Source of the DNA: a virus
Taxonomy: Duplodnaviria > Heunggongvirae > Uroviricota > Caudoviricetes
Virus record (IMG/VR): IMGVR_UViG_2778261068_000003
Location: 1-43,997 of that record
Direction: 5' to 3' (one strand)
Length of the DNA stretch: 43,997 nt
This document shows positions 261-42,612 of the stretch, one piece after another. Made by a program: the position numbers and the translations under genes. The notes under the pieces are model-generated. The model was given only the letters and a program-made list of their open reading frames with translations. It searched no databases and had not been told where the DNA came from. Numbering within the stretch: position 1 is the stretch's first letter; each line of letters opens with the position of its first letter.

Positions 261-815
261 TTAAAACCGCATCAACCGCTCCACCAGTTGTTCCTTACGG
301 GCAACTATCCAGCCTTGCTGTTCCAGATAAAACTTAAAACGCTCCAGGGTGCACACCATTGCGTCGGCTGGGACTTTTTCTGTGAACTCAATCTGACCGT
401 GGCTATTGAAATGGATCAGCAACGAGCAACCGGCAACTGATGTGGTTTGTGGCGATGCTGGAGGTTGTTTCTTATTGAAATAACAGTCTTCCAGTTTTTC
501 GAACACTTCCCACGCCTGATCGGTTTCCAGCATTTTGGCGTGGCGGGCTGCTCCGCGTTCTGTCCAGAGGATGAGCGAGCGGGTTTTGGGAGATATTTGT
601 GACTCTCTTAAAGATAGTCGCAAATTTTTTAGCTCCTCACCCACAATTTTGAAAAAGTGCTTTCCCTCAACAAAGCGATCCGAGTTGCGTTTGTGATTTT
701 GCTGAATGCGAATTGCTTCTGTACCGTAAAGCTGCGCCAAAAGTTCAGTGGTAATAACAGGGATCTGGTTATGAGTGATCGGGGAGAGAGTTTTAACAGA
801 GATTTGAGTTGTCAT
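261..815 (-). CDS. ORF6N/KilA-N-like DNA-binding domain protein (phage regulatory or antirepressor-like)
   Basis: N-terminal ...IPVITTELLAQLYGTEAIRIQQNHKRNSDRFVEGKHFFKIVGEELKNLR... resembles the ORF6N domain; GAGGG Shine-Dalgarno 6 nt before ATG at 815. Confidence 0.55.
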   Translation of the reverse strand: MTTQISVKTLSPITHNQIPVITTELLAQLYGTEAIRIQQNHKRNSDRFVEGKHFFKIVGEELKNLRLSLRESQISPKTRSLILWTERGAARHAKMLETDQAWEVFEKLEDCYFNKKQPPASPQTTSVAGCSLLIHFNSHGQIEFTEKVPADAMVCTLERFKFYLEQQGWIVARKEQLVERLMRF

Positions 816-1085
816 AATGACGCCCTCTGGTGGTTTCTAAATAACTCACCACCGACGACGCCAATCGTCTGGTGGTGAACTGTGCAGGGTTGGCGTAACC
901 GGGAAACCAACCGGCGCACCTTTCGGTGCCCCCACACAGCCCACCATAATTCAGATGTGCGTGCGCATACGACAATAAAAAACACGCTCGCGGCGTGTGT
1001 CTGTCGCGGTTTCTATCCGGGACGCCAATCCCGACGCCAGATTTTGCTGGCGTGCGCAGACTATAATCCCGGACGGTTATTTTTG

Positions 1086-2204
1086 TCAAATAACCAACTT
1101 AACCCATTCCTGACCACGGGTGTCGTTATAGCGATCGGTGGTTGCCTGGACTTTATGTCCCAGTAATGTTTTTGTATCGATACCCTGTGCCCGGTACAGC
1201 CGTTCTGACAGGGAGCGTTGTTCATGAAATGTTGGTGGTGTTTTTCCTGCTGGTGGAGTTATTCCTGCCAGATCCCGCGCTTTAGCAAAGTAGTCGCTAA
1301 GGTTATCTTTACTCATTGGTTTTGGTTGTTTCTGGTGCCGACTATGAATCAGGTATGGACTCAATATTCTGTCCCTGCATCCATCAATTACTTCCTTTAG
1401 CGATATCCCAATGGCATCACAGCGTAGTGTAAGCGGTAACGCCAGACGCATTCCGGTTTTTCCCTGGGTGATATGCAAGTGTTCGTTCCATACATCTGAA
1501 AAACGCATGTGGCAAATGTCATCGCGGCGCTGACCTGTAACAATCGCAATAAGCATTGCATTGCGGATAAAATGTTTTTCAGGCGTTGCGTTGTAAATTT
1601 TTTGCCAGTCTTCCAGAGTAAGTCTGGCTCTTGTCACTTTAGGGATCGGTTTACGGGTTGCCTCCGGGGGATTCCATCCGGGAGGAACTTCTCCAGCATG
1701 CTGCGCTTCTTTATATATATCAACCCACAATCCACGATTTACTTTTGCTGTACTGACCATGTCTTTATCCAGCCACTCATCCAGTATTAATGCAAAGTCT
1801 CTTACTTCCAGTTCTTTCAATGGGTGGTTTCCCAGACGGGAAACCAGGAATGCAGCCATTCGCGCTTTTTCTTTGTGAGTTGTAGCTGCAATATCTCCAT
1901 TTTTCAGTCGCGCGTCCTGTATTTTCAGATATCGATCAACCCATGCTTTTAATCTGATGCCCCGACGTTTTGTTGCTGACGGACTTTCATCAATTTTGCG
2001 CATGAAATATTCAGCTTCTGCTGCAGCTATTCGCTGATTGGCTGTGGTGGCGATTTTTTCTGCCTTATTTTTGTCTGTTCCGAGTCCGTGAAATTTTCCG
2101 GTTACAGGATTTTTATACTGGTAGTAAACTCTGCCGGTTCTGCGATCAAATTTTTCGTAAAGACCCGCTACATCAGTGCTGTTTTTTCGTGGCCTCGGTG
2201 ACAT
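1086..2204 (-). CDS. int: lambda-family tyrosine integrase
   Basis: 372 aa; N-terminal arm-binding-like region and C-terminal ...LLGHKVQATTDRYNDTRG... catalytic-tyrosine region; overlaps the 3' end of the xis-like gene as in lambdoid phages. Confidence 0.9.
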   Translation of the reverse strand: MSPRPRKNSTDVAGLYEKFDRRTGRVYYQYKNPVTGKFHGLGTDKNKAEKIATTANQRIAAAEAEYFMRKIDESPSATKRRGIRLKAWVDRYLKIQDARLKNGDIAATTHKEKARMAAFLVSRLGNHPLKELEVRDFALILDEWLDKDMVSTAKVNRGLWVDIYKEAQHAGEVPPGWNPPEATRKPIPKVTRARLTLEDWQKIYNATPEKHFIRNAMLIAIVTGQRRDDICHMRFSDVWNEHLHITQGKTGMRLALPLTLRCDAIGISLKEVIDGCRDRILSPYLIHSRHQKQPKPMSKDNLSDYFAKARDLAGITPPAGKTPPTFHEQRSLSERLYRAQGIDTKTLLGHKVQATTDRYNDTRGQEWVKLVI

Positions 2205-2503: not shown

Positions 2504-4963
2504 TTAAAAATCAGCCTGACTCGGGAGCAGTTTTTGCCAGATAGCTGAAACGTATTTTGCCTGGTAACGGGCGTCATCAAGTGCATTGTGGCGCTCGCCT
2601 TCGAATGGAATAGCCGTTCTGGCATCGAAGTCCATGGCTCCTCCCAGTTCAACGATCGTGCGAACATCGCGATCATTGCAGTAGTGCCACGGGCAGGGGA
2701 TTCCCTGTCGTTCGTATGAACGGCGTAAAATTACGTTGTCGAAACTGGTTCCGTTGCTCCAGACCTGAACAAAAAACTCACCAGAGTTTTCGTCGATAAA
2801 TTCCCGTAATTGCAACAGTGCATCATCTAACGGGATTTCATCAGCCAGAATGGCAGACTGCGCTTCGCGCGATTGCTTCAGCCACCACTTAACGGTGTCC
2901 CTGTCAATGACACCGCCAGCAGTATCCAGATCGATGGTCTTACTGAATTCTGGCCCAATATTTCCGGTTTGCGGATCGAAAAATATTGCACCTATTGAGA
3001 TAACTGCAGCATCAGGATTTTTTCCCATGGTTTCCAGGTCGATCATCATATGAGTCCACATTCTGTTACTGGTGGATATGTATTTATGATGACCGTTCGC
3101 CGGAATTAGGGGATTTGCCGTCTCGCCAGTTTCATCACTGCTATTGCCATGCTGAGCGTCACCAGCGCTCTCCTTATGAGAATTCTCAGTGCTTTCCATT
3201 TTCTCCGAATCTTTTTCAGCCAGATTTTCTTCATCGAATGTTTCCTGATATGTTGTGTTACCCATAACAGGCCCGCAGTCCGGACATTTTCCACCGCCAG
3301 CCCGGCTGCAAGTATTGCAGCTTTTTTCAGTCCCCTGTTGTGCTGTTGGCTCTGACTGTTGCACTTCTGGCCCATTTTGTTGCGCATCCGGACTGTTTTG
3401 TTCCGCTTTCTGGTCGTTCTGTTCCGTTTCTTGCTGATTCTGGTACAGAGAATCGCGAGTCTGGATCCCCTCAACCCACTTCGGATCATTCGGGTCGCTA
3501 ATTCCTTCAACAAATTCACCACGTGATGCAGCAAGCACTTTGTCGGCATCAGGCAGATTTTCTGTCTCCATTTTTTTATTTGTTTCGACCGTGTTAACTT
3601 TTACCGGCTCTGGTTGTTCAGAGTTTTGTGCGACACTGGTATTTTGCGGTAAGCCTGTGTATGTGCCATTTTTTCGGGCGACATATTCTTCTTTGGTGAT
3701 TTCAGTAGCCCCGGCAGCCAGCGCCTTATTCAGACCAGACAGTTTGTTTGCGCGACCGTATTTTTCGCCGTCCTTATCGGTAAAGAGGAAGTAGAACGGT
3801 CCTTCACGCTCTACAGATGGTTCAGCTTCCAGTGCGCTTTCATTTTTTTGGGTGCCAGATACTTCTGTTTCCACTGCATCAGTTTGTGTTGCTGACGACC
3901 GGAGAACATCAGCAGGACTCTGATCCGTTTCTTCATCTTCAAACACGCCTTTTGTCGTCAGGTATTCAGTAATGTATTTGTTCAGTGCCACAGGGTCTTT
4001 GTGAATGTCGATCGGACGTTCACGGACAAGGCCAAAAATAGTCTGGCGGCTGTAGCGAAGCGCATCAGGCTGTTTGCGCATTGATGCGGAGATGCGCTTC
4101 CAGTCTTCGCGATCTTTGTCGATAACTTCATTTTTTGCCCAGCGATGGATGCTGCCGTCAATGTTTCCGGCATCAATATCGCCAGGCCAGAGAGCGTAGG
4201 CCAGTTCTTCATCCAGCGTTTTCCATGTCTGCCTGTATTCGCGACGAATGGCGGCAGTGACTGGGTTGATTTTTGCTACTGAGTTTTCAGTGTTCTGCCG
4301 GTTAACTTTGGCGCGGGCGAGATCAACAACAGAAGTATATGCTCCACCTTCTTTGCGCTCCTTTTCCATGCGTTTTTTACGTTCGAGAAAATACGCCTGA
4401 ATGTCGGGCCATTTGGCTGTTGGTTTTAAATCACGTCTGGCATCGTTGATGTACTCAGTCTGACGCTCAGGATACATGGCGTTAATTTCTTTAGTCCTGA
4501 TAATTGCTTCAGTGAGGTGTCCATCAAAAGTCGTCATCTCGTCATCGCCGAGAAGCCCGCTTGCATTGATGACCATATCCACGGTGATGTTTTCATGTGT
4601 ACCGAACCTGACAAGGACAGCAGCCCGCTTGTCTTCAGATAACTGATTAAAGTTAACAGTTTCTGTATCCGGTTCAGGGTCGACCGGAACAAAGGAAGCC
4701 GACTCCTCATTCCAGCGGTTTTCCTGCATATATTCGGAATCCCAGGAATCGAGAGCAGGGCGGGCCATGCCGGGTTTATCCTCGCAGACAAGAAATTTAT
4801 AAGCACAGTCCTGAGCTTCCGGGTATTGTTCCAGAAATAACCAGCTAAATTTGGCTCTTGCCCGGCGTTCGTCGCCTGCTTCAATGGCAGTGGCCACAGG
4901 TCTGGCGCCTTCTGCTGTTGCCTGTTCGTCCGGAATGGCGGCGCAAATAAAGACTTTACTCAT
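2504..4963 (-). CDS. large phage exonuclease-domain protein (C-terminal DnaQ/DEDD-like 3'-5' exonuclease fold)
   Basis: 819 aa; C-terminal MIDLETMG...SNGTSFDNVIL...HNALDDA resembles DEDDh exonuclease motifs; central CxxC...CPDC zinc-ribbon-like motif and a Q/E-rich low-complexity segment; sits at the exo/recombination position. Confidence 0.7.
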   Translation of the reverse strand: MSKVFICAAIPDEQATAEGARPVATAIEAGDERRARAKFSWLFLEQYPEAQDCAYKFLVCEDKPGMARPALDSWDSEYMQENRWNEESASFVPVDPEPDTETVNFNQLSEDKRAAVLVRFGTHENITVDMVINASGLLGDDEMTTFDGHLTEAIIRTKEINAMYPERQTEYINDARRDLKPTAKWPDIQAYFLERKKRMEKERKEGGAYTSVVDLARAKVNRQNTENSVAKINPVTAAIRREYRQTWKTLDEELAYALWPGDIDAGNIDGSIHRWAKNEVIDKDREDWKRISASMRKQPDALRYSRQTIFGLVRERPIDIHKDPVALNKYITEYLTTKGVFEDEETDQSPADVLRSSATQTDAVETEVSGTQKNESALEAEPSVEREGPFYFLFTDKDGEKYGRANKLSGLNKALAAGATEITKEEYVARKNGTYTGLPQNTSVAQNSEQPEPVKVNTVETNKKMETENLPDADKVLAASRGEFVEGISDPNDPKWVEGIQTRDSLYQNQQETEQNDQKAEQNSPDAQQNGPEVQQSEPTAQQGTEKSCNTCSRAGGGKCPDCGPVMGNTTYQETFDEENLAEKDSEKMESTENSHKESAGDAQHGNSSDETGETANPLIPANGHHKYISTSNRMWTHMMIDLETMGKNPDAAVISIGAIFFDPQTGNIGPEFSKTIDLDTAGGVIDRDTVKWWLKQSREAQSAILADEIPLDDALLQLREFIDENSGEFFVQVWSNGTSFDNVILRRSYERQGIPCPWHYCNDRDVRTIVELGGAMDFDARTAIPFEGERHNALDDARYQAKYVSAIWQKLLPSQADF

Positions 4964-5319: not shown

Positions 5320-5779
5320 AAATGAATTTTGTCGATGCGGTGCCTGGTGCCTCCAGGTGACGTTAACCAGTTAACAATTAACGCCGGATACAGAGAACCC
5401 ACCCATAAGAACCAATACGGAAGTCAACTGGCCTTTTTAACTGTTCCGCGTGCGCTGAGCCGCATTCACCGCATCACAAAATTCACTTTAAAAAGGGCGG
5501 ACATCAGCCAGCAATGAAACTGATGCCGCCAAAAGGTAATCAACATGGGTTGTTGCAGCGGGGTTGTCACTCAGGCGTATGGTCAACCTGACAACCCGGT
5601 GTCCTCAACAGGGGGAAGGAATAACCCCGCCATACGTACCGCCGTGCGCTTTCGCGTTATGCCCTGACTTTTCAGGGATATATCCTTTCAGTAAACTGTC
5701 AGTGCCGGATTCTTATCCGTGTCCGGCGCACGACCACATGTGGCAGCGTGTTGGTCTCCATTTTTAACCCAGAATCTCA

Positions 5780-5977: not shown

Positions 5978-6248
5978 AGGCTTCTCTGATTTCTTGAGCC
6001 AGTTTTTTAGCTGGCTCTACCTTTTCTGTCTCCCCGTTCAAAATGAGAGATTTCAGTGTTTCTGCGGCGATTTTCTGAGTGTCTGGAGGTAAATCTTTAA
6101 ATTCCATCTTTAACCCCGTTAGTCGATAGATTTTGTCGAACTGGAAAGCGCCTGTTTAAACTCACTGAAGCTGAGAGCTTCTTCGCCTTCGGCAAGGCCT
6201 TCGAAGTATTCTTCGTAAGCCTTTTTCATGATTGCGTCGAAATCCATA

Positions 6249-6404
6249 TCACTCACCTGAATTTCTTTCCAGCCAGCGACGTGCGCCAGTTTCGGTTTTA
6301 AACGTTTTGCTTTTGGTATACGTCATCGCGGTGAATGTGCCGTCCTGGTTGGGAAACACGCCGTATGCCAGAGATTCGTTGTTGCCAAGATCGATAGTAT
6401 CCAT
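6249..6404 (-). CDS. hypothetical small early protein (51 aa from internal Met)
   Basis: Minus-strand ORF immediately downstream of the leftward operator region; GAGG Shine-Dalgarno 6 nt before ATG at 6404; the ORF track extends it to 6497. Confidence 0.35.
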   Translation of the reverse strand: MDTIDLGNNESLAYGVFPNQDGTFTAMTYTKSKTFKTETGARRWLERNSGE

Positions 6405-6486
6405 GCTGACCTCATCTCCCCTTAACGCTGGGGTAGCGGAACTGTTTGCTGAGAACACCGTGCGGTGTCTTGATGAATGATAATTT

Positions 6487-6534
6487 AGTTTTCTCATGTT
6501 AATTGGTCAAGTGTTTTTGATGAGAAAACTCAAT
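6487..6534. promoter_or_regulatory. operator-like inverted repeats (OL-like) downstream of the repressor gene
   Basis: AGTTTTCTCAT ... ATGAGAAAACTCA inverted repeat in an AT-rich intergenic region; the same TGAGAAAACTCA motif recurs at 7053..7066. Confidence 0.5.
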
Positions 6535-6594
6535 ATTTAATGCAAAATAAAGCCAATACATTGAAATGTAAGGCTTTAAAATTTGTGAATGGGG

Positions 6595-7002
6595 TTATTG
6601 ATGTTTGTTACGTTTGCGAGCTTCTAGTAGCTCGGTGAATAGGCGATTAAAATTCTCAACGCGGGCACGGAGTTCGCTGATTTGTGCTTGCTGCTCTGAT
6701 TTTGGAAGTGCGCGATACAATCGCAACATCTCCAACTCATCTTCCGATAAGTCTAAGGCGCTGTTGAGTGCAACTGGTGGATCTGGTGTTTTATCCTCGT
6801 CACCAAACAGTATCCAAGTTGGTGAACATTGCAATACCTCAGCCAGGCGATGCAAATTTTGCCCACGCGGGGCTGTATGGTCGCTTTCCCATAGTGAAAT
6901 TGATGAGCCAGATACGCCAGCAGCTTTGCTTAAATCGTTTTGACTTAAACCAACCTGTTTGCGTCTTTCTCTAATTCGTTGACCTAAAGTTTTCTCGTTC
7001 AT
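6595..7002 (-). CDS. DicA-like HTH (XRE family) prophage repressor
   Basis: ...LGQRIRERRKQVGLSQNDLSKAAGVSGSSISLWE...LQCSPTWILFGDEDK... closely resembles E. coli DicA; start placed at MNEKTL (7002) because the longer ORF start at 7053 would overlap the operator. Confidence 0.85.
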   Translation of the reverse strand: MNEKTLGQRIRERRKQVGLSQNDLSKAAGVSGSSISLWESDHTAPRGQNLHRLAEVLQCSPTWILFGDEDKTPDPPVALNSALDLSEDELEMLRLYRALPKSEQQAQISELRARVENFNRLFTELLEARKRNKHQ

Positions 7003-7024
7003 ATTTAGATATCTTAATAACCCT

Positions 7025-7066
7025 TGACTTGAGATTCCTTGAGTGATTACCATTGAGAAAACTCAA
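7025..7066. promoter_or_regulatory. divergent promoter/operator region (OR-like) between repressor and cro-like genes
   Basis: TTGACT -35-like hexamer and repeated TTGAG half-sites, including TTGAGAAAACTCAA at 7053..7066, just upstream of the GGAGG Shine-Dalgarno of the cro-like gene. Confidence 0.5.
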
Positions 7067-7079
7067 TTTTGGAGGGGCG

Positions 7080-7307
7080 ATGTTTAAATCAGACGTAATT
7101 AATTTTTATGGGACGAAAGCCAAAGTAGCGAAAGCTGCTGGTGTTGATCCATCTGCTGTTTCTCAATGGGGGGCACTGGTTCCTGAAGGTCGCGCGATGC
7201 GCCTGCAAGAGGCATCCGGCGGGGAACTTCAGTACGACCCCAAAGTTTATGACGAGTATCGTAAGGCAAAGCGGGCGGGGCGGTTGAACAATGAAAATCA
7301 CCCCTGA
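7080..7307 (+). CDS. Cro-like/YdaS-like small HTH regulator
   Basis: 75 aa from the ATG at 7080, with GGAGG at 7071..7075; ...FYGTKAKVAKAAGVDPSAVSQW... HTH; divergent from the repressor as in the Rac racR-ydaS arrangement. Confidence 0.7.
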   Translation: MFKSDVINFYGTKAKVAKAAGVDPSAVSQWGALVPEGRAMRLQEASGGELQYDPKVYDEYRKAKRAGRLNNENHP

Positions 7308-7812
7308 ACAGGTTTGTGAGGCTCTGGATGCCTGGGTATGCCGACCAGGAATGACACAGGAGCAGGCGACAATATTAATCACGGAAGCATTCTGGGCTCT
7401 GAAAGAACGCCCGAACATCGCTGTTCAACGTGTCACGTTTGATGATGGCGCGGTTGATCAACGGGCACTGGGCGTTAACCGGGTAAAGATATTCGAACGC
7501 TGGAAAGCTATCGACACCAGGGATAAGCGTGAAAAATTCACGGCGTTGATTCCGGCAATTATGGAGGCTATCCGGATAAGTGATTTCAGGTTGTATCGTG
7601 AAATTACTGACGCAAAAAGCATTACATACATGATCGCCGGGCTAAACAAAGAATATGGCGACGTGGTGGAGTCAGGTCTGCTTTTTGCAGATCCGGCTGT
7701 TGTGGATCGTGAAACCGACGAACTTATAGAAAAAGCCATTGCTTTCAAGCGTGCGTATCGTCAGCAATATCAACAAAAAGCCGGATGGAATTATGAGTCT
7801 TCTGTTTGCTGA
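7291..7812 (+). CDS. CII-like/YdaT-family regulator
   Basis: 173-aa ORF immediately downstream of the cro-like gene, at the position of lambda cII / Rac ydaT; the family assignment is by position and general resemblance only. Confidence 0.5.
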   Translation: MKITPEQVCEALDAWVCRPGMTQEQATILITEAFWALKERPNIAVQRVTFDDGAVDQRALGVNRVKIFERWKAIDTRDKREKFTALIPAIMEAIRISDFRLYREITDAKSITYMIAGLNKEYGDVVESGLLFADPAVVDRETDELIEKAIAFKRAYRQQYQQKAGWNYESSVC

Positions 7813-12118: not shown

Positions 12119-12306
12119 AAACGATTTGCGGGAAAAGGACAGTTAAGTAAAATCGCTGCGGGTGCTTGAGGCTATCTGTCTCAGGCATGAACACCAACGG
12201 CAGATAGATAAAAGCCCCACCCGACTATAAATCGAAGTGAGGCCCCTATATGCTCGACACATATAGATTGCCTCTTACGGACCGAAAGGTCAAGGAGAAG
12301 CAGGCT

Positions 12307-12462
12307 ATGAAGCAGCAAAAGGCGATGTTAATCGCCCTGATCGTCATCTGTATTACCGTCGTAGTGACGGCACTGGTAACGAGGAAAGATCTCTGCGAGG
12401 TACGAATCCGTACCGGACAGACGGAGGTCGCTGTCTTCACAGCTTACGAATCTGAGGAGTAA
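12307..12462 (+). CDS. hok: Hok/Gef-family type I toxin
   Basis: MKQQKAMLIALIVICITVVVTALVTRKDLCEVRIRTGQTEVAVFTAYESEE matches the Hok family pattern; AAGGAG Shine-Dalgarno; an in-frame upstream extension (12250) is mok-like; stem-loop directly after the stop. Confidence 0.85.
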   Translation: MKQQKAMLIALIVICITVVVTALVTRKDLCEVRIRTGQTEVAVFTAYESEE

Positions 12463-12734: not shown

Positions 12735-12995
12735 ATGAAAATCGAAGAATTGCGTGAAATTTTTAGTGAAGATGGCCTCTATACTGTGTGCGTTGAGAAT
12801 GGCTCTATTGTCAGCCACTGCCGTATTAAATGTTTACAGTTTCAACAAAGGAAGAGTGGGGCTGCGTTAATTTACTTTGTGGATGGGCTTGTGACAGATG
12901 GTTTTATTTTGCGTGAAAATGAATTTGTCACATCATTGCAGTCTCTGAAAGAAGCTGGGCTTAAGGCTGGTTTTTCTGCTTTTGAAGATGAGTGA
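12735..12995 (+). CDS. hypothetical protein (86 aa)
   Basis: ORF with GAAGGA Shine-Dalgarno; no motif recognised. Confidence 0.45.
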   Translation: MKIEELREIFSEDGLYTVCVENGSIVSHCRIKCLQFQQRKSGAALIYFVDGLVTDGFILRENEFVTSLQSLKEAGLKAGFSAFEDE

Positions 12996-41527: not shown

Positions 41528-42612
41528 ATGAATACTGTCCTGATTTCAGTCTGTCAGCAGAAGGTGAAGACATTACGCAGGTAATAAAACGGGGGCTTGC
41601 AGAACTGCATTACACGGATAATGGTGCAGCAACAAAACAGGCGGATGAGCTGGTGATAACGCTGTTCAGCGAAACCCTGTCATTACCTCCCAAAGGGGCG
41701 CTGCTGCGTCTGGGACTGGGTTTTAACGGAAAACTGGTAAATAAAGGGACGTTCACCGTCTGCCAGGTGGCAAGCAGTGGTCCACCCCGCAGAATCACTG
41801 TCTCAGCCACATCGGCCCCCATGAATGCATCAAAACATGGTGCGGATGTGACCGCGCTTAAAAACCGTGCTTTCAGCGATATTACGCTGGGGGACCTGGT
41901 GAAAACAATCGCCACTGAAAATAATCTGGTGGCGCGGGTCTCACCGGCGCTGGCGAAAATCCGTATTCCGTGGGTGATGCAGTCATCAGAATCTGATGCG
42001 TCGCTGTTATCGCGGCTTGCAGCCATGTACGGGGCCACCAGTAAACCGACGAACGGTTACTGGTTGTTCCTGGAGTATGGCGCCTCACAGAGTCCGTCCG
42101 GCAGGGATGCACCAGCTCTGACCATTACACCGGATATGGTTTCGGGCTGGAGTTATACAGAGGGAGAGCGCGGAGGGGCATCCGGCGTGAGTGGTGAAAA
42201 AAAAGGTAAGGTTGGGGTCAGATATTTTGAACAGAGTACGGGACGGACGCGTGAGCATACCGTTGATGTGGAGTCCACAGATAAGCGTCATCCGTTTACC
42301 CAGGCAGATAAAGGTGCGGCAGAGCACAGCGCACAGGCAAAGGTCAGGCGGGTACAGAAATCCGGACGCCGGATGACAATAACACTGCCCTGCAGGCCAG
42401 CGCTGCTGAAAGCGGGGGCGGAAATGCGTTTTATCACGCAGGGATTTGGGGTACGTGAGGATCATAACTGGCAGGCAGAGTCGGTGGAGTTCTCACTGGT
42501 ACCAGGCCAGGGATTTACACTGAATCTGTCGCTGTCCACAGATATTTCCGCGAAAGGACAGGAGTCAGGGAAGAAAAAAGCCGATAAAAAAGGGGTGAAT
42601 TATTATGGATAA
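41518..42612 (+). CDS. tail protein D (P2 gpD-like late control/tail protein)
   Basis: 364-aa last gene of the tail operon, at the gpD position. Confidence 0.8.
   Translation: MELNEYCPDFSLSAEGEDITQVIKRGLAELHYTDNGAATKQADELVITLFSETLSLPPKGALLRLGLGFNGKLVNKGTFTVCQVASSGPPRRITVSATSAPMNASKHGADVTALKNRAFSDITLGDLVKTIATENNLVARVSPALAKIRIPWVMQSSESDASLLSRLAAMYGATSKPTNGYWLFLEYGASQSPSGRDAPALTITPDMVSGWSYTEGERGGASGVSGEKKGKVGVRYFEQSTGRTREHTVDVESTDKRHPFTQADKGAAEHSAQAKVRRVQKSGRRMTITLPCRPALLKAGAEMRFITQGFGVREDHNWQAESVEFSLVPGQGFTLNLSLSTDISAKGQESGKKKADKKGVNYYG

Follow-up and report, generated by a model that had tools for sequence, protein, structure and literature searches.

The region at positions 6482-7307 of the window (the whole 43,997-nt stretch of DNA analyzed here) is very probably the immunity region of a lambdoid Escherichia coli prophage of the Qin (dicA-dicC-dicBp) type, with putative repressor-binding sites on both sides of the repressor gene (Table 1). 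This layout, a short DicA-family repressor with putative sites either side of its gene, is common and already understood, and the Qin type in turn derives from that of P22 immC. Judged from sequence, the operator half-site of this switch is distinct within Qin/P22-type immunity. At this locus, a divergent dicC (P22_Cro family) gene lies on one side of the repressor gene and the promoter of a ydfA...dicF operon lies downstream of it. The sequence features, homologies, positional correspondence with known systems and conservation were observed directly. The synteny of the repressor, P22_Cro and YdaT genes is retained in five further loci.

The same immunity type was present, at a coverage of at least 80%, in 756 of 5,426 complete E. 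coli genomes. It also occurs in two isolated phages, HannyBb and mEp460_ev081; a literature search for operator studies of mEp460 or HannyBb returned nothing specific. A comparison of the first 1.3 kb with the last 14 kb of the window for attL/attR yielded only 12-nt chance repeats, and we infer the left prophage end from E. coli A8, where the isrK/C4-ORF6N module abuts potC.

Table 1. Features of the immunity region and of the candidate antirepressor genes. Coordinates are positions in the window.
Feature	Coordinates	Strand	Basis
DicA-family immunity repressor, 135 aa	6595..7002	-	Pfam HTH_3 1.2e-16; 56% identity to K-12 DicA
Cro-like regulator, DicC homologue (P22_Cro family), 75 aa	7080..7307	+	Pfam P22_Cro 3.6e-17; Shine-Dalgarno GGAGGGG upstream
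YdaT-family CII-like regulator, 173 aa	7291..7812	+	Pfam YdaT_toxin 25.1 bits vs 21-bit cut-off; PHROG 163
OR1-like operator (putative)	7053..7066	.	TTGAGAAAACTCAA, perfect palindrome
OR2-like weak site (putative)	7029..7042	.	TTGAGATTCCTTGA, one good half-site
OR3-like site (putative)	7004..7017	.	TTTAGATATCTTAA; repressor-sense strand TTAAG-ATAT-CTAAA
Rightward PR/dicCp-like promoter	7024..7053	+	-35 TTGACT (7024-7029), 18-nt spacer, -10 TACCAT (7048-7053); consensus scan
OL2-like operator (putative)	6520..6533	.	ATGAGAAAACTCAA, ~10 nt upstream of leftward-promoter -35
OL1-like operator (putative)	6484..6497	.	TTTAGTTTTCTCAT, minus strand ATGAGAAAACTAAA
Leftward PL/dicBp-like promoter	6482..6510	-	-35 TTGACC (6510-6505), 17-nt spacer, -10 TAAATT (6487-6482); consensus scan
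YdfA homologue, DUF1391, 51 aa, first gene of leftward operon	6249..6404	-	tblastn 96% to YdfA; Pfam DUF1391
YdfB homologue, after YdfA homologue	6128..6247 (aligned)	-	tblastn 92.5% to YdfB
DicF-like sRNA, after YdfB homologue	5495..5545	-	DicF 34.1 bits, E 3.9e-5, under gathering score
Rem homologue, 86 aa, candidate antirepressor	12735..12995	+	74% identity to K-12 Rem
ORF6N anti-repressor-family gene (AnrP-like)	261..815	-	PHROG 2379 'anti-repressor' 1.5e-87
isrK/C4-RNA - small ORF - ORF6N module	261..1066	-	Rfam and PHROG
Rfam RNA matches in ORF6N module	c4-a1b1 1014-1066; isrK 977-1053; C4 868-951	-	All three above gathering scores
Small ORF of ORF6N module	812..985	-	ATGA overlap with ORF6N start

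The repressor and its start codon

The repressor consists of a P22 c2-like five-helix HTH domain (residues 6-66), a linker and C-terminal helices at residues 87-98 and 101-134. Its identity to K-12 DicA spans residues 5-132, so that the homology is full length and includes the conserved C-terminal helical region. In the PDB, the N-terminal domain matched the P22 C2 N-terminal domain with an E value of 2e-23 and 48% identity. An AF2 model of the repressor (pLDDT 85) has an all-helical C-terminus in which residues 87-134 form two helices, and its best Foldseek matches were 3jxb/2r1j; for the N-terminal domain, the TM score was 0.95 and the rmsd 0.8-1.1 A to c2-operator complexes.

Pfam gave no Peptidase_S24 match in the repressor at E<=0.01, and the protein has neither an S24 autoprotease domain nor an Ala-Gly cleavage site. 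In these respects it differs from SOS-cleavable repressors of the P22 c2/lambda cI type, with 135 aa vs 216 aa for c2 and a helical C-terminus in place of S24. DicA has likewise been described as lacking an S24 autoprotease domain (PMC10448788). The earlier note had described the repressor as non-cleavable and DicA-like, and the HTH-only composition, the missing S24 domain and the identity to K-12 DicA bear this out. RecA-stimulated self-cleavage is excluded as an induction route because the repressor has no S24 domain.

Alignment of 24 sequences revealed invariant C-terminal columns (LP-SEQ ... RARV-NFN-LF-ELL-ARKR), and most homologues are 135 aa long. All 24 homologues begin at the same Met, and the upstream extension is stopped within 2-3 codons in three loci of the same type (L017, L019 and L020), in agreement with the shorter start at 7002 that had been favored before. 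For annotation, this settles the repressor start at 135 aa. The annotation of phage HannyBb uses a 152-aa ORF for the repressor.

Neighboring genes and the Rac-type reading

The Cro-like protein shares 71% identity with K-12 DicC, and the two diverge mostly in the N-terminal HTH. The gene that directly follows it encodes a protein that scores above the Pfam YdaT_toxin gathering threshold and matches PHROG 163, 'CII-like transcriptional activator' (7e-41). K-12 YdfX corresponds to the N-terminal 93 aa of this YdaT-family protein at 90% identity. A PDB sequence search with the YdaT-like protein gave no match, and the CP-933P YdaT site TTGATT-N6-AATCAA had 0 matches in the window.

The switch had been labeled Rac-type, that is, a RacR-like repressor acting over YdaS/YdaT-type toxic genes as in K-12 Rac. 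The order of genes (repressor, divergent small HTH gene, YdaT-family gene, replication genes) is indeed the same, and the Cro-like protein and the third gene product are weakly similar to YdaS (E 4e-5) and YdaT (E 8e-7; Pfam YdaT_toxin), respectively. However, the repressor has no detectable similarity to RacR (BLASTP best E 3.5), which refutes family membership, and the Cro-like protein scores 62.3 bits against P22_Cro (cut-off 30.2) vs 20.9 bits against YdaS_toxin, below the Pfam gathering score of 30. The neighbors ydfA, ydfB, dicF-like, rem and hokD are Qin genes, and the regulatory DNA is alignable to P22 and Qin. We consider a Rac-type switch very improbable. The RacR label falls with it; the arrangement of a divergent Cro-like gene followed by a CII/YdaT-like gene stands, with P22_Cro replacing YdaS as the family of the first. 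The practical value of these results is chiefly for annotation, including replacement of the Rac-type label with a Qin/P22 immC-type one.

A palindrome repeated on both sides of the repressor gene

The motif TGAGAAAACTCA occurs exactly at 6521-6532 (+) and 7054-7065 (+), and an inverted copy with one mismatch, TGAGAAAACTAA, is located at 6485-6496 (-). The earlier note had reported the same core on both flanks, with an inverted pair downstream of the repressor gene; the repeats are real, but the left arm departs from identity at one base, and the positions were off by 1-3 nt. Allowing at most one mismatch, TGAGAAAACTCA has 4 matches in the window compared with 0.295 expected and a maximum of 3 in 200 first-order Markov simulations, and a 581-bp stretch contains three of the four. 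These repeats are real and beyond chance. The fourth match (36436-36447), which is consistent with chance, lies in frame (V-R-K-L-K) within the late ORF 36096..36638.

TGAGAAAACTCA forms the central part of the 14-bp palindrome TTGAG-N4-CTCAA, the putative operator consensus for this immunity type. With up to two mismatches, the palindrome has 17 matches in 44 kb, five of them inside 6484-7066; these five copies near the immunity genes are the OL- and OR-like sites of Table 1, the OR2- and OR3-like copies being weaker. We found no other repeated motif common to both flanks of the repressor gene.

The repeat could also be left over from duplicated gene 5' ends. An ORF finder lists ORFs 6249..6497 and 7053..7307, both of which start M-R-K-L-N, their first five residues being identical. 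YdfA homology, however, begins only at 6404 and DicC homology at 7080, behind GGAGGGG; the third copy (6520-6533) starts no ORF, and the motif is palindromic and lies on promoter elements. A duplication origin is scarcely credible, and we removed the two spurious ORF starts (6497 and 7053), at which putative operators had been read as codons.

Right-hand sites and rightward promoter

We compared the window with P22 (AY121863), in which a scan for TTAAG-N4-CTTAA located six operator-like sites. The scan sites are named OR1-3 and OL1-2 after the P22 operators to which they presumably correspond. The OR and OL regions of the window align with P22 immC, each of the five window sites falls on one of the six operator-like sites of P22, and the -35 elements TTGACT and TTGACC are common to both. 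In keeping with the P22 immC layout of three sites between the divergent genes and two or more at PL, the window has three sites between its divergent genes, two of them degenerate, and two at the PL-like promoter.

The OR1-like site lies directly downstream of the -10 of the rightward promoter, with a 1-nt overlap, and aligns to the position of P22 OR1 and to K-12 Oc. The OR2-like site falls within the spacer of the same promoter, adjoining the -35, and aligns to the P22 OR2 position (P22 CTAAAGGAATCTTTAGTCAAG vs window CTCAAGGAATCTCAAGTCAAG). In the consensus scan the -10 TACCAT of this promoter is weak; relatives, P22 and K-12 keep the -35 unchanged and have a TAnnAT-like -10 at the matching place.

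The OR3-like site aligns to the P22 OR3 position, adjoins the repressor ATG and overlaps a -10-like hexamer, TAAGAT (7011-7016, minus strand), which we infer to be the -10 for a near-leaderless repressor mRNA. Its sequence is conserved even between DicA immunity types and, for this reason, is not diagnostic of specificity. A function as promoter or 5' end would account for this conservation no less well than one as operator. In K-12, where Oc and Om are the counterparts of the OR1-like and OR2-like sites, DicA was bound in vivo at Oc only, with Om and Oa unbound (PMC3441716). It may therefore be that the repressor does not use the OR2-like and OR3-like sites, and its binding at the OR2-like site is putative.

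Left-hand sites, leftward promoter and operon

On the left, the OL2-like site aligns to the P22 OL2 position. The OL1-like site aligns to that of P22 OL1 and is located within the spacer of the leftward promoter, overlapping its -10. The mismatch in the OL1-like core, CTAAA in place of CTCAA, is conserved, and it falls on the -10 TAAATT. The CACTTGACC of this promoter is identical in P22 and K-12 dicBp, and a promoter scan placed both operator sets over sigma-70-like promoters. One related locus, L017, carries an extra upstream site. The window also carries a homologue of hokD, a Qin gene.

The left-hand pair (6483-6534) could instead form an RNA hairpin that terminates or stabilizes the repressor transcript at its 3' end, and not be DNA operators. 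Its 15-nt arms are 93% complementary and lie ~60 nt downstream of the repressor stop codon, and in L020 both arms carry a matching T-to-C/A-to-G change. The predicted fold, however, is no better than that of shuffled sequences (z = -1.09; 31 of 200 shuffles as good), no U-tract follows the pair, and a terminator scan was empty there. The central bases of the arms are non-complementary in L021, the L020 pair lies ~290 bp farther from the repressor gene and is still around the promoter, and the motif recurs as a single palindrome at the OR1-like site. A hairpin is most unlikely as the explanation, and we retain the reading of the pair as putative operators.

Conservation of the sites and specificity

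We examined nine loci of the same type from several enterobacterial genera (Escherichia-like, Buttiauxella, Citrobacter, Scandinavium, Salmonella, Klebsiella and Yokenella). The flanks of the strong sites have drifted but the sites themselves have not changed, producing a phylogenetic footprint: the OR1-like site is invariant at 13 of 13 positions, the OL2-like site is invariant, the OL1-like site is conserved, and the OR2-like site is nearly invariant across same-type loci. In L020, an insertion displaced the left promoter by ~290 bp, and both left sites moved along with it.

Other immunity types (P22, K-12 Qin, L008, L009 and L012-L015) have other recognition helices, together with other motifs shared between the upstream and downstream sides of the gene at the same positions. 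Among other DicA types, a different recognition helix goes with a different motif. The aligned series of P22, the window type, K-12 Qin and L008-L009 may offer a natural data set for HTH-operator specificity.

It is improbable that the Cro-like (DicC) protein or some other factor is the main binder of the motifs and that the repressor recognizes something else. The DicC-like HTH also varies between immunity types, co-varying with the operator type, but repressor and Cro act on the same operators in switches of the P22 and lambda type. In K-12, ChIP-seq of DicC detected sites on both sides of dicA with the palindrome TT(A/C/T)G...C(G/A/T)AA (PMC11430063), whereas K-12 DicA binds Oc, the counterpart of the OR1-like site, represses dicC and dicBp and activates dicA (PMC3441716, PMC10448788). 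The repressor N-terminal domain has its match in the P22 c2 domain, crystallized on a site of the same 5-4-5 layout, and the flanks have no second common motif to serve as its target. The P22 repressor binds 18-bp sites with four non-contacted central bp that favor A/T tracts (PMC4267663). Collectively, the positional correspondence with P22, the nine-locus footprints and the K-12 DicA and DicC experiments (PMC3441716, PMC11430063) uphold the proposal that the repeats occupy OR-like and OL-like positions.

Candidate antirepressors

The Rem homologue co-occurs with DicA-type immunity in four of the four loci having enough flank, and it is also found in PEC422 (91%) and phage HannyBb (76%), both of the window's immunity type. 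In K-12, Rem derepresses dicBp 165-fold, and mitomycin C and recA are without effect (PMC10448788). The Rem homologue is therefore the leading and best-precedented candidate antirepressor, its action on the window repressor being predicted from these relationships.

The earlier note had nominated the ORF6N gene and overlooked the Rem homologue. The family and the isrK/C4 context of the gene are in line with that nomination: RNAs lie upstream of a coupled small ORF and the anti-repressor-family gene, and Gifsy-1 isrK-orf45-anrP has the same type of small-ORF/antirepressor overlap (PMC4825925). The module is not linked to the immunity type of the window; in E. coli A8 it is paired with a different immunity region. 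The ORF6N protein is a plausible second candidate that may be under antisense or sRNA translational control. Rem, besides ORF6N, is now indicated as a likely induction factor. There was no convincing LexA box near the Rem homologue or the ORF6N module, and the sole exact CTGT-N8-ACAG in the window, at 42526, has a GC-rich center.

Proposed mechanism

In the model that we propose, binding, stoichiometry, the promoter controlled by each site, leaderless translation and the identity of the antirepressor are all predictions. A repressor dimer would most likely bind the 14-bp TTGAG-N4-CTCAA sites, with their A-tract center, through its P22 c2-like HTH. The strong OR1-like site would cover the -10/+1 edge of the promoter that serves both the dicC homologue and the YdaT/CII-like gene, with the weaker OR2-like site in the spacer of that promoter. 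The OR3-like site would overlap the promoter of the repressor gene itself, which would be weak, near-leaderless and probably activator-dependent. The two left-hand sites flank the -35 and extend over the -10 of the promoter for the ydfA-ydfB-dicF-like early-left operon. Occupancy by the repressor would shut both lytic promoters, and the DicC-like Cro, binding the same regions, would turn the repressor off, giving a bistable switch.

Most likely, induction would be brought about by a small antirepressor, by the switch flipping spontaneously or under stress, or by a combination of these. The Rem homologue would be the leading antirepressor and the isrK/C4-gated ORF6N protein a possible second. 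We tentatively suggest, as a doubtful extension, that two independent antirepressor inputs (Rem-like and isrK/C4-gated AnrP-like ORF6N) act on one non-cleavable repressor, probably via its two-helix C-terminus as in SinI-SinR, and, separately, that the operators represent a natural one-base-pair switch (TTAAG to TTGAG) of the P22 c2 HTH via N32G, V33S and Q37L relative to c2.

Comparison with known systems

The locus shares with K-12 Qin a 135-aa repressor (56%) without a cleavage domain, DicC (71%), ydfA/ydfB, a DicF-like sRNA, rem and hokD homologues, and operator-like sites at the same positions, one set beside dicC and the other about the -35 of the promoter that lies downstream of the repressor. 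The two differ in the operator, TTGAG-N4-CTCAA in the window vs TTGTTAG-N6-CTAACAA (Oc) in K-12 Qin, and in the recognition helix, VSGSSISLWES vs ISHVSVSQWER. Because the recognition helices differ, a separate immunity specificity is predicted. The YdaT-like gene is full length in the window and truncated (ydfX) in K-12 Qin, whereas dicB is present in K-12 Qin and had no homologue detectable in the window by tblastn with Qin genes. The immunity type of the window also occurs in isolated phages, while K-12 Qin is a cryptic remnant.

Rac racR-ydaS-ydaT resembles the locus in its analogous gene order, non-cleavable repressor and YdaT-family third gene. In contrast, RacR is unrelated, the Cro-like protein of the window belongs to P22_Cro and not to the YdaS family, and the neighbors are Qin-like. 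Antirepressor-induced prophages (Gifsy, including Gifsy-1 isrK-orf45-anrP, and P1/P7 immI c4-icd-ant) likewise combine a non-cleavable repressor with candidate antirepressor genes, and, as in Gifsy-1 and P1/P7, the module at 261-1066 has isrK, C4 and a1b1 RNAs and a small ORF coupled by ATGA (PMC4825925). Unlike in those systems, no LexA box lies near the candidates and the module is unlinked to the immunity type.

P22 immC has a homologous repressor N-terminal domain (48% identity, rmsd about 1 A) and the same 5-4-5 site core with an A/T-rich center, which is non-contacted in P22 (PMC4267663). OL3 is present in P22 immC, and our comparison with P22 found no counterpart in the window. The C-terminus is an S24 autoprotease/oligomerization domain in P22 c2 (216 aa) and a two-helix domain in the window repressor (135 aa), and the half-site at the three strong sites is TTGAG in the window vs TTAAG in P22. 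The underlying design has been understood ever since P22 and Qin were studied.

A palindromic motif flanks the repressor gene

A motif search of the window found exact copies of the 12-mer TGAGAAAACTCA at 6521-6532 (+) and 7054-7065 (+), and a one-mismatch copy, TGAGAAAACTAA, at 6485-6496 (-). The repeat finder also picked these copies up, listing them as one 17-nt direct repeat and as inverted repeats of 15 nt. The motif search thus confirmed the repeated motif described in the earlier note, although the coordinates shifted slightly and the left arm is not identical. Matches with at most one mismatch numbered four, against 0.295 expected (maximum of 3 in 200 Markov simulations), and three of these fall within 581 bp. 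The fourth, an exact copy of TGAGAAAACTCA at 36436..36447 (+), in frame (V-R-K-L-K) within a late ORF (36096..36638), is compatible with a chance match, since about 0.3 near-matches are expected per window. The 12-mer is the core of a 14-bp palindrome, TTGAG-N4-CTCAA, and the strong sites have AAAA/TTTT centers. With up to two mismatches, the palindrome has 17 matches in 44 kb, five of them between 6484 and 7066, and the scan adds two degenerate sites.

A promoter consensus scan over 6200-7400 found two promoters. Site 7053-66 begins on the last base of the rightward -10, and site 7029-42 lies within, and fills, the rightward spacer. On the other side of the repressor gene, the leftward promoter has site 6484-97 overlapping its spacer and -10, and site 6520-33 about 10 nt upstream of its -35. 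The repressor would bind these sites and control both promoters. The inverted pair could instead act as an RNA hairpin, but this is not supported: its fold gave z = -1.09, a terminator scan found no terminator-like site there, and in comparison locus L021 the centers of the two arms are not complementary.

Two ORFs that start with MRKLN, 6249..6497 (-) and 7053..7307 (+), were rejected as true starts. Homology puts the starts at 6404 (YdfA) and 7080 (DicC-like); the MRKLN beginnings are operator sequence read as codons.

Features of the immunity region and antirepressor candidates. Names of P22 sites are those we presume from knowledge of P22 and analogy with lambda; the tools give site positions only.
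Feature	Position	Strand	Basis or P22 counterpart
ORF6N gene	261..815	-	PHROG 2379 'anti-repressor' 1.5e-87
Strong site	6484-97		OL1 position (alignment)
Leftward promoter	TTGACC 6510-05, 17 nt, TAAATT 6487-82	-	Consensus scan
Strong site	6520-33		OL2 position (alignment)
Repressor	6595..7002	-	HTH-only; Pfam HTH_3 1.2e-16
Degenerate site	7004-17		OR3 position; adjoins repressor ATG in P22 and window
Rightward promoter	TTGACT 7024-29, 18 nt, TACCAT 7048-53	+	Consensus scan
Degenerate site	7029-42		OR2 position; P22 CTAAAGGAATCTTTAGTCAAG vs window CTCAAGGAATCTCAAGTCAAG
Strong site	7053-66		OR1 position (alignment)
DicC-like gene	7080..7307	+	71% identity to DicC; above Pfam P22_Cro cut-off, below YdaS cut-off
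YdaT-family / CII-like gene	7291..7812	+	Family matches
Rem homologue, 86 aa	12735..12995	+	74% identity to K-12 Rem

The sites correspond in position to those of P22 and K-12

We scanned the P22 immC segment (AY121863) for TTAAG-N4-CTTAA and found six sites, three between c2 and cro and three downstream of c2, the latter around a TTGACC...TAAATT promoter. Both regulatory regions of the window align with the P22 regions. In contrast to the TTGAG half-site at the three strong window sites, P22 has TTAAG at those positions. The P22 repressor uses 18-bp symmetric sites in which the four central bp are not contacted and A/T tracts favor binding (PMC4267663).

At matching positions, K-12 carries TTGTTAGTCATAACTAACAA adjoining dicC and two related sequences, one on each side of the dicBp -35. 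The sequence next to dicC is Oc, which is bound by DicA in vivo and loses binding upon one A-to-C change; from this site DicA represses dicC while activating dicA, and Om and Oa are not bound (PMC3441716). Repression of dicBp by DicA is 22-fold (PMC10448788), and DicC ChIP-seq detected sites on both sides of dicA with the palindrome TT(A/C/T)G...C(G/A/T)AA (PMC11430063).

Motif and recognition helix differ together across loci

Twelve loci came from genome contigs and five from exact-protein look-ups. Nine loci sharing the recognition helix SxSS[IV]SLWE (the window, L004, L006, L007, and L017-L021) formed the same-type set, whose record or source names include Buttiauxella, Citrobacter koseri, Scandinavium, Salmonella, Klebsiella michiganensis, and Yokenella. 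All nine have TGAGTTTTCTCAA 62-64 nt upstream of the repressor ATG and a site pair bracketing the leftward -35; the positions within these sites are invariant while the flanks diverge. Where an inserted gene displaces the leftward promoter by about 290 bp (L020), both sites moved along. Loci with other recognition helices (K-12, L008, L009, L012-L015, and P22) have a different motif, common to both flanks, at the same offsets, and the HTH of the DicC-like protein also varies among immunity types. Such joint variation is expected if the repressor and the DicC-like protein read these operators. Conservation of the OR3-like sequence TTAAGATATCTAAA, by contrast, extends even across immunity types, and it may be as much a promoter or 5' end as an operator. 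The core proposal, a repressor gene with operator-like motifs on both sides, holds, given the positional alignment with P22, the footprint in nine loci, and the K-12 experiments.

On L020, a Klebsiella michiganensis contig, about 350-400 nt past the repressor stop, an additional 67-aa gene in the opposite orientation separates the repressor gene from the leftward promoter. The operator pair of L020 carries the same central change in both members, GAGCTTTCTC and the complement GAGAAAGCTA.

The repressor is a 135-aa protein without an autoprotease domain

The repressor is 56% identical to K-12 DicA over nearly its full length, and in a PDB search its family profile matched the DNA-binding domain of P22 c2 (E 2e-23). 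In the AlphaFold model (pLDDT 85), residues 6-66 form a five-helix HTH, which a linker joins to two C-terminal helices (87-98 and 101-134). Foldseek aligned the N-terminal domain with P22 c2 in its operator complexes 3jxb and 2r1j (TM 0.95, rmsd about 1 Å, 48% identity). A Pfam search found no S24 domain and the model has no beta-rich S24 fold, which confirms that the autoprotease domain is lacking, as the earlier note had claimed.

That note had also favored the start at 7002, and the homologues agree. The start Met is common to all 24 aligned homologues, most database entries are 135 aa, and the upstream in-frame extension meets a stop within 2-3 codons in same-type loci L017, L019, and L020 and has no start codon in L006. 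The HannyBb phage record annotates a 152-aa ORF, a form that these sequences exclude as the conserved product. The ATG at 7002 lacks a Shine-Dalgarno sequence, and a TAAGAT hexamer 8 nt upstream of it suggests a near-leaderless mRNA.

Beyond P22 c2, the modeled layout of HTH plus C-terminal helical pair resembles, by Foldseek, SinR and phi106/SPbeta-type repressors. Small antirepressor proteins (SinI, AimX) inactivate those repressors, which offers a possible model for the action of a Rem-like protein.

The locus is Qin-type

The label 'Rac-type' was not borne out: sequence comparison detected no similarity between the repressor and RacR, and the Cro-like protein passes the P22_Cro cut-off and not that of YdaS. 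The predicted order of a divergent Cro-like gene followed by a CII/YdaT-like gene was correct. Homologues of YdfA and YdfB and a DicF-like sRNA lie left of the repressor, and hokD/sok and a Rem homologue lie further right. Because of these neighbors, the DicA/DicC homology, and the lack of RacR similarity, the locus is Qin-type. The same region is annotated with DicC, YdaT family, and DUF1391 in E. coli genomes and phage records.

The DicF-like sRNA (5495..5545, -) is divergent and belongs to the leftward operon; its Rfam score of 34.1 bits (E 3.9e-5) is below the gathering score of 48. No DicB homologue was found anywhere in the window by tblastn. K-12 YdfX (locus L001, 3347..3637) matches the N-terminal 93 residues of the 173-aa YdaT-like protein, at 90% identity, so ydfX looks like what remains of a truncated gene for a CII-like regulator. 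An 819-aa early-left protein (2504..4963, -) occupies the position of RecE in the early-left operon of Rac; the one domain recognized in it, near the C-terminus at residues 637-809, has an Rv2179c-like 3'-5' exoribonuclease fold, and no family matches the long N-terminal part.

Two antirepressor candidates and their precedents

The earlier note proposed the ORF6N gene as antirepressor. Rfam matches that exceed their gathering scores, to c4-a1b1 (1014-1066), isrK (977-1053), and C4 antisense RNA (868-951), lie directly upstream of it on the same strand, and between them and ORF6N is a small ORF (812..985) whose TGA overlaps the ORF6N ATG (ATGA). This immI-like module (261..1066, -) is flanked by the integrase gene (1086..2204) and the prophage left end. 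Its layout matches isrK-orf45-anrP of Gifsy-1, in which AnrP, an antirepressor-like protein, is unlocked for translation by IsrK (PMC4825925), and this makes ORF6N credible as an RNA-gated antirepressor. Its module, however, is not linked to this immunity type: it adjoins potC in E. coli A8, within a prophage that has a different immunity region, and is absent from PEC422 and HannyBb, which share the type of the window.

The proposal was also incomplete, having missed the Rem homologue, which is present in PEC422 (91%) and HannyBb (76%) and, as in Qin, lies directly downstream of a hokD/sok pair (12160..12447). K-12 Rem, the demonstrated antirepressor of DicA, gives 165-fold derepression of dicBp; neither mitomycin C nor recA has an effect there, and spontaneous, DicC-dependent switching occurs in about 1% of cells (PMC10448788). 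A search of the window found no LexA box near either gene. Given the K-12 precedent and its presence with this immunity type, the Rem homologue is the better-precedented candidate, its action on this repressor being presumed.

Of 5,426 complete E. coli genomes, 756 carry the immunity type at ≥80% coverage, and it is also present in phages HannyBb and mEp460_ev081. The region is well supported as a lambdoid immunity region of ordinary design, of the Qin/P22 immC kind, whose operator half-site is distinct.
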